DNA from: Escherichia coli
Lineage (GTDB): Bacteria; Pseudomonadota; Gammaproteobacteria; Enterobacterales; Enterobacteriaceae
Direction: 5' to 3' (one strand)
Assembly: GCF_003334315.1 (NCBI RefSeq)
Contig: NZ_QOWR01000022.1
DNA length: 64,000 bases
This document shows, piece after piece, positions 36,425 to 36,831 of the stretch. The translations under genes were made by a program, and so were the position numbers. Under the pieces are notes generated by a model. The model had not been told where the DNA came from. It saw nothing but the letters and a program-made list of their open reading frames with translations, and made no database searches. How positions within the stretch are numbered: the first letter of the stretch is position 1; each line of letters opens with the position of its first letter.

Positions 36425-36537
36425 ATTGACCTTCCATCATTAACGCGCTCTGAAAATTGAGAGCGACCAAATAAACCGCATAATTAATAAGCCATTTTTA
36501 TAGCCGCTAAGATATTAAAGGATGTGTCAAAGATGCA

Positions 36538-36553
36538 TACCCCGATCGGGGTA
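36538..36553 (-). promoter_or_regulatory. NarP/NarL 7-2-7 heptamer pair in the napF promoter
   Basis: Perfect palindrome TACCCCG-AT-CGGGGTA, about 120 bp upstream of the napF ATG. Confidence 0.7.
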
Positions 36554-36558
36554 AAACC

Positions 36559-36572
36559 TGTAGCAGGATCAA
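36559..36572 (-). promoter_or_regulatory. Candidate FNR site in the napF promoter
   Basis: Minus-strand TTGATCCTGCTACA (TTGAT-N4-degenerate half), centred exactly 20 bp upstream of the NarP site centre, consistent with the recalled -64.5/-44.5 layout. Confidence 0.55.
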
Positions 36573-36831
36573 AAGAGTGGCGGGAAGCGTGGCAAAAACG
36601 GGCTTTTGCTCACATTTCAAATGGTTATAAATATATTTATATAGCGATTAATTCACCAGAGATATTTCTGCTGGTTTGCTCTCTCATTAGAATTTAACAC
36701 TAAAAGAGCAGGTAAAATTGTCTGAATGTTCTTTAAGTTATTCATAAAGCAAATTAATAAATCTGATGAATATGTTAACCTTCAGCGACATCATCGGTGA
36801 AAACCTATAAATGAAGAAGGAAAGCAAAAAA

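Follow-up and report, generated by a model that had tools for sequence, protein, structure and literature searches.

The napF-eco spacer of Escherichia coli: FNR/NarP architecture of a nitrate reductase control region and an annotated reading frame across its sites

The stretch of Escherichia coli DNA analysed here (64,000 nucleotides, hereafter the window) carries, in the RefSeq gene order, napA-napD-napF, then yojO, eco and mqo (Table 1). Between napF and eco lies a spacer of 407 bp (36425-36831) with a GC content of 35%, vs 55% in napF and 52% in the whole window, which agrees with the AT-rich intergenic region of ~400 bp given in a preliminary description of this DNA. The further claim that the spacer is shared with eco stands in part: eco is indeed divergent from napF, but yojO is annotated across the regulatory sites and the proposed eco promoter is remote from them. 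The promoter assigned to eco by genomic SELEX, which we placed in the sequence, adjoins that gene and is separated from the napF sites by ~230 bp (PMC3946193). The spacer is single-copy in 5422 of the 5426 complete E. coli genomes, and 4962 of 5422 genomes share a 71-bp core, also single-copy, at 99% identity or more. The locus is the same as the napF (aeg-46.5) control region of E. coli K-12 (NC_000913.3 coordinates are window coordinates plus 2267073). From napF to eco, three bases differ between the window and MG1655, and a single one of them falls in the spacer, at 36650 (A in the window, G in MG1655), upstream of the ModE operator and outside every site; the NarP/NarL, FNR, CRP-like and ModE sites and the -10 hexamer are identical in the two strains.

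Table 1. Genes, sites and promoter elements at the napF-eco locus, in window coordinates; negative positions are relative to P1.
Feature	Coordinates	Strand	Remarks
napA (NapA)	33194-35680	minus	
napD (NapD)	35677-35940	minus	
napF coding sequence	35930-36424	minus	GTG start; first gene of napFDAGHBC
Inferred napF P1 start (A)	36501	minus	from the published -44.5; MG1655 NC_000913.3 2303574; 77-nt leader
P1 -10 hexamer TATCTT	36509-36514	minus	-13 to -8
TAATAT	36512-36517	minus	overlaps TATCTT by three bases; candidate P2 element
yojO, annotated ORF, 54 aa	36533-36697	plus	RefSeq annotation
7-2-7 NarP/NarL site TACCCCG-AT-CGGGGTA	36538-36553	.	centre -44.5 relative to P1
FNR site TTGATCCTGCTACA	36559-36572	minus	centre 20 bp upstream of NarP site; left half perfect, right half degenerate
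CRP-like site TGTGA-GCAAAA-GCCCG	36599-36614	minus	centre ~-105.5
ModE operator CGCTATATA-N6-TTTATAACC	36623-36646	minus	centre -133.5
Promoter-like GCGACA-15-TATAAA, assigned to eco	36785-36811	plus	genomic SELEX table (PMC3946193), placed in the sequence
eco (ecotin) coding sequence	36832-37320	plus	divergent from napF; accepted start 36832

The perfect 7-2-7 inverted repeat of heptamers announced by the preliminary description is present base for base. It reads TACCCCGATCGGGGTA, a perfect 16-bp palindrome whose sequence and position were confirmed by a script, with its centre at 36545.5; the distance from the site to the napF start codon is 121 bp. In both heptamers six of seven positions agree with TACYYMT, and the two are inverted around a 2-bp spacer with full dyad symmetry. 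A repeat search had missed this palindrome, probably because its arms abut, and a separate script recovered it. In published work, napF is one of four genes for which 7-2-7 sites had been reported (PMC2718512), and this NarL/NarP site was placed at -40 to -49, i.e. with its centre at -44.5 (PMC4549865), the very position that had been proposed from the sequence. Expression from a napF fragment spanning -85 to +19 is strongly narP-dependent, and competition by NarL-P at napF has been reported (PMC9262595). The window holds five perfect 16-bp palindromes, vs ~1.2 expected from Markov simulations. The NarL/NarP consensus TACYYMTNNAKRRGTA occurs twice with at most two mismatches, vs 2.6 expected per 64 kb, and a match to it is therefore unremarkable when taken alone. 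A GATC, the sequence of Dam methylation, sits exactly on the dyad (36543-36546); it becomes AATT or GATT in some Citrobacter, and other sequences elsewhere.

Further upstream on the napF strand lies the FNR-like sequence. The plus strand at 36559-36572 reads TGTAGCAGGATCAA, and its reverse complement is TTGATCCTGCTACA, as confirmed by a script; the centre, at 36565.5, is exactly 20 bp from that of the NarP site, as first described. The site has three mismatches to TTGATN4ATCAA, with a left half matching at 5/5 positions and a right half at 2/5, and "FNR-like" is thus the right word for what is half a consensus site. The window contains 354 matches to the FNR consensus with up to three mismatches, vs 246 expected, and such a match is consequently not distinctive by itself. 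From the densities of the consensus scans, we estimate that a given site has a chance of ~0.55% per side of having an FNR-like match with its centre at exactly 20 bp, and that ~0.03 composites of a NarP site and an FNR-like site with centres 20 bp apart are expected per 64 kb. A composite placed directly upstream of napF is thus unlikely to be accidental. The weight of the case comes from this position upstream of napF, from conservation across genera and from published binding data.

The positions relative to transcription depend on the start site. Setting the centre of the 7-2-7 site at the published -44.5 (PMC4549865) puts the start of P1 at 36501. If so, the centre of the FNR site would be at -64.5, i.e. 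-44.5 plus 20 bp. The same figure, -64.5, was reportedly given by Darwin & Stewart (1995), Darwin et al. (1998) and Stewart et al. (2003). TAATAT fits a second promoter, P2, which presumably starts ~3 nt upstream of P1. A consensus scan for pairs of sigma-70 -10 and -35 elements spaced by 16-18 bp gave plus-strand candidates and none on the napF strand; the lack of a -35 match fits an activator-dependent promoter and is therefore no argument against function. Among the entries listed in the tables of Ettwiller 2016 and Kim 2012, there is no napF start site near the expected coordinates, and napF may have been silent in these aerobic cultures.

To compare the region across genera, we collected napF upstream sequences by a genome scan with NapF peptides, which gave at least seven useful loci, by protein search and by contig look-ups. 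The resulting set has 14 Enterobacteriaceae sequences from nine genera (Escherichia, Citrobacter, Leclercia, Salmonella, Trabulsiella, Cedecea, Buttiauxella, Shimwellia and Pluralibacter), and another four from less closely related bacteria (L030-L033), namely Pasteurella, Enterovibrio, Aggregatibacter and Actinobacillus. When eight sequences are aligned, the invariant columns cluster between -70 and -7, at 6-8 per 10 positions, vs 0-3 per 10 upstream of -70, except from -140 to -121. Conservation falls on both sides of this footprint. When the 14 sequences are anchored on the 7-2-7 site, none of them shows an insertion or deletion from -75 to -7. The pattern TACCYCnATnGGGGTA is found in 14/14, with mean majority fractions of 0.85 and 0.89 for the two heptamers, and candidate 7-2-7 sites also occur in Enterovibrio and two Pasteurellaceae. 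TTGAT is likewise invariant (14/14), with its centre always 20 bp from that of the NarP site. The second FNR half is degenerate in all sequences: only the C at position 13 of the 14-mer never varies, and this base is shifted by 1 bp relative to the consensus. Finally, the hexamer at -13 to -8 is conserved as TATCTT (TACCTT in two of the 14), and its distance to the NarP site is fixed in Escherichia, Citrobacter, Leclercia, Salmonella and Shimwellia. This footprint across genera is independent support for the published architecture of napF.

One could argue that TTGATCCTGCTACA is a chance match and that FNR acts elsewhere, or only indirectly. Matches with three mismatches are common in the window, and the napF leader contains a better one, TTGAGAGCGACCAA (36457-36470, +32 to +45), which has two mismatches only and has FNR-like sequences at the same place in Citrobacter. 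Several observations nevertheless favour the proposed site. First, with an offset of 1977 bp between U00096.2 and U00096.3, which we take to be correct, the published FNR peak converts to 36573-36579 in the window, i.e. 7.5-13.5 bp from the centre of the proposed site vs ~110 bp from the leader match. This peak, between napF and yojO, was found by ChIP-seq/ChIP-chip at 2301669 (Table S5) or 2301675 (Table 2) of U00096.2, and few other FNR peaks have a motif (PWM) score as weak as its ln p of -5.37 (PMC3688515). The Fnr ChIP-exo supplements of Federowicz 2014 have no napF entry among those listed. Second, TTGAT is kept at fixed spacing in all 14 sequences; E. albertii and L003, a divergent genome labelled E. 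coli, have lost the right half of the leader match. Third, an FNR site at +38 would repress transcription and not activate it. Fourth, the -85 to +19 fragment keeps regulated expression and does not contain the leader match (PMC9262595). We rejected the leader sequence as an FNR site because of the ChIP position and its poor conservation; its resemblance to the consensus is probably due to chance. It is very hard to credit that FNR acts at another place or indirectly, and we retain TTGATCCTGCTACA as the FNR site of napF.

The palindrome itself might be something other than an operator. Its arms are perfectly inverted, the stem would be GC-rich, and a promoter-like site lies upstream of it on the plus strand (36457-36484), so that it could form a DNA or RNA hairpin, e.g. 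a terminator, an attenuator or a recombination site. Yet no U-tract follows it on either strand, it was not flagged by the terminator scan, and Rfam gave no family match (one meaningless sub-threshold hit). It would also be absent from the napF transcript because it lies upstream of the napF start. Moreover, its changes in relatives are often non-compensatory, the consensus of the heptamers being kept over their pairing, as in TACCTCCATTGGGGTA and TACCTCTATCGGGGTA. A hairpin in place of a protein-binding site has next to no chance of being the right explanation, and we read the palindrome as the binding site of NarP and NarL.

Two other elements lie upstream of the FNR site. The CRP-like AAATGTGAGCAAAAGC is conserved in Escherichia, Citrobacter, Salmonella and Shimwellia, the last having GCACA as its right half. 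Stewart et al. reportedly described, in 2009, a Crp site at napF that lies further upstream than those of Fnr and NarP, and the CRP-like sequence would fit that site. The ModE operator contains a perfect 16-bp palindrome, TATAAATATATTTATA (36626-36641), and is kept in Citrobacter and Salmonella as CGTTATATA-N6-TATATAAC. We take the ModE consensus to be a pair of inverted CGnTATATA repeats, ~6 bp from one another, in front of an operon for a molybdoenzyme, and this is the arrangement found in CGCTATATA-N6-TTTATAACC. McNicholas & Gunsalus reportedly gave, in 2002, -133.5 as the position of ModE at napF. The centre of the operator coincides with this value only if P1 is at 36501, which makes it an indirect check on the start site. 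Activation of nap by ModE is documented in a review (PMC8139620).

The annotated reading frame yojO offers another explanation for the conserved blocks, since it overlaps the NarP, FNR, CRP and ModE sites. If yojO encoded a protein on the plus strand, the blocks would be coding sequence and the palindrome incidental to it. RefSeq annotates the frame in most E. coli genomes, and in relatives a tblastn search detects similar peptides in front of napF. A number of arguments point the other way. First, stop codons interrupt the frame in E. albertii, in genome L003 and in four out of four Citrobacter. Second, the stretches of yojO-like peptide coincide with the NarP, FNR and CRP sites. Third, conservation ends upstream of the ModE site while the yojO frame continues. 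Fourth, we found no functional report on YojO in the literature searched. We rejected the coding hypothesis on account of the stop codons in relatives, and consider it very improbable that protein coding explains the blocks. Because these in-frame stops occur in close relatives, yojO looks like a shadow open reading frame of regulatory DNA and, on the comparison of these sequences, is unlikely to be a conserved coding gene. In many E. coli records it is named simply "hypothetical protein".

The architecture can be compared with that of other systems. In H. influenzae and other Pasteurellaceae, Stewart & Bledsoe reportedly placed, in 2005, Fnr at -81.5 and NarP at -42.5 upstream of napF. The Pasteurellaceae regions likewise have the FNR site upstream of a 7-2-7 NarP site. 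The spacing differs: two Pasteurellaceae, Aggregatibacter and Actinobacillus succinogenes, have the centres 39 bp apart, and in Enterovibrio the distance is 29 bp, vs 20 bp in E. coli. These steps between families (20, 29 and 39 bp) each amount to about one helical turn. The FNR sites of Aggregatibacter, Actinobacillus succinogenes and Enterovibrio are also closer to the consensus (1-2 mismatches) than that of E. coli napF. In nirB and nrfA, FNR binds at -41.5 and the Nar site is upstream of FNR. The order at napF is the reverse of this arrangement: NarP is placed between the polymerase and FNR, and the latter would be at an unusual class I position. The heptamers themselves follow a shared pattern: nirB, nrfA, fdnG and yeaR have inverted heptamers with a 2-bp spacer that both regulators bind (PMC2718512, PMC4549865).

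Taken together, the region can be identified with little room for doubt as the classical control region of napFDAGHBC, the operon of the periplasmic nitrate reductase in E. coli. It would work as follows. Leftward (minus-strand) transcription would start from a promoter with the -10 hexamer TATCTT and without a usable -35, the lack of which implies a need for activators. Without oxygen, an FNR dimer would occupy TTGATCCTGCTACA, the weak site; when nitrate or nitrite is present, a dimer of phosphorylated NarP would occupy the 7-2-7 palindrome two helical turns downstream of FNR, and both together would recruit RNA polymerase to P1, at ~36501. Phosphorylated NarL, favoured at high nitrate, would occupy the same palindrome without activating; by displacing NarP it would make expression of the operon highest at low nitrate. 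Through the upstream CRP and ModE sites, the operon may in addition respond to carbon source and molybdate. Of this picture, the analysis documents the sequences with their spacing and conservation, together with the published NarP position and FNR occupancy; the exact start sites, the -64.5 position of FNR and the mechanism of competition between NarL and NarP are inferred or taken from the literature.

The napF promoter is among the best studied of those at which FNR and NarP cooperate and NarL competes for the same site. Its FNR/NarP architecture is already known, the interpretation given in the preliminary description is correct, which shows that such a region can be recognised from raw sequence, and there is nothing new in it. 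The present finding adds little, and what it offers in practical terms is limited to a hint that the RefSeq yojO is an artefact of annotation over regulatory DNA. We would entertain, but not favour, a tentative joint reading in which the FNR site of napF is deliberately kept asymmetric and weak and yojO is no gene, being the shadow cast by operator sites in a reading frame. If true, such a site could make the occupancy of FNR depend on NarP, two helical turns away.

By comparison with shuffled sequences, the 77-nt napF leader has no particular tendency to fold (z = -0.74). It contains a terminator-like hairpin with a T-run at 36463-36479 (minus strand; one found vs 0.4 expected), and TAAACCGCATAATTAATAAGCCATTT (36472-36497, +5 to +30), which resembles, with one mismatch, what we take to be the type-2 motif of IscR. 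The CC/GG positions of this IscR-like motif are not kept in Citrobacter. Reviews mention an aerobic repression of nap by IscR and a RIL-seq interaction of the sRNA ArcZ with napF mRNA.

Some other features of the window can be mentioned. Between eco and mqo, a run of REP/BIME-like repeats (37330-37800) appears as several overlapping open reading frames with near-identical translations. The gene of the regulator that binds the palindrome, narP (23427-24074, plus strand), is in the same window, just past the end of the nap-ccm cluster, and two of the other perfect palindromes are in it or close to it: CAGTTTTTAAAAACTG at 23185, in the yejO-narP spacer, and GTGGATGATCATCCAC at 23460, at the start of narP. 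An 18-bp perfect palindrome, CGATATTCATGAATATCG, lies at 26252, inside ccmF as placed by the offset to MG1655. In this strain yejO (20516-23107) is intact; in K-12 it is interrupted by IS5. Finally, the gene divergent from napF is eco in E. coli and Salmonella, and encodes a NarQ-like sensor kinase in Cedecea, Pasteurella, Enterovibrio and Aggregatibacter, the domains of these kinases being PilJ-HAMP-HisKA_3-HATPase.
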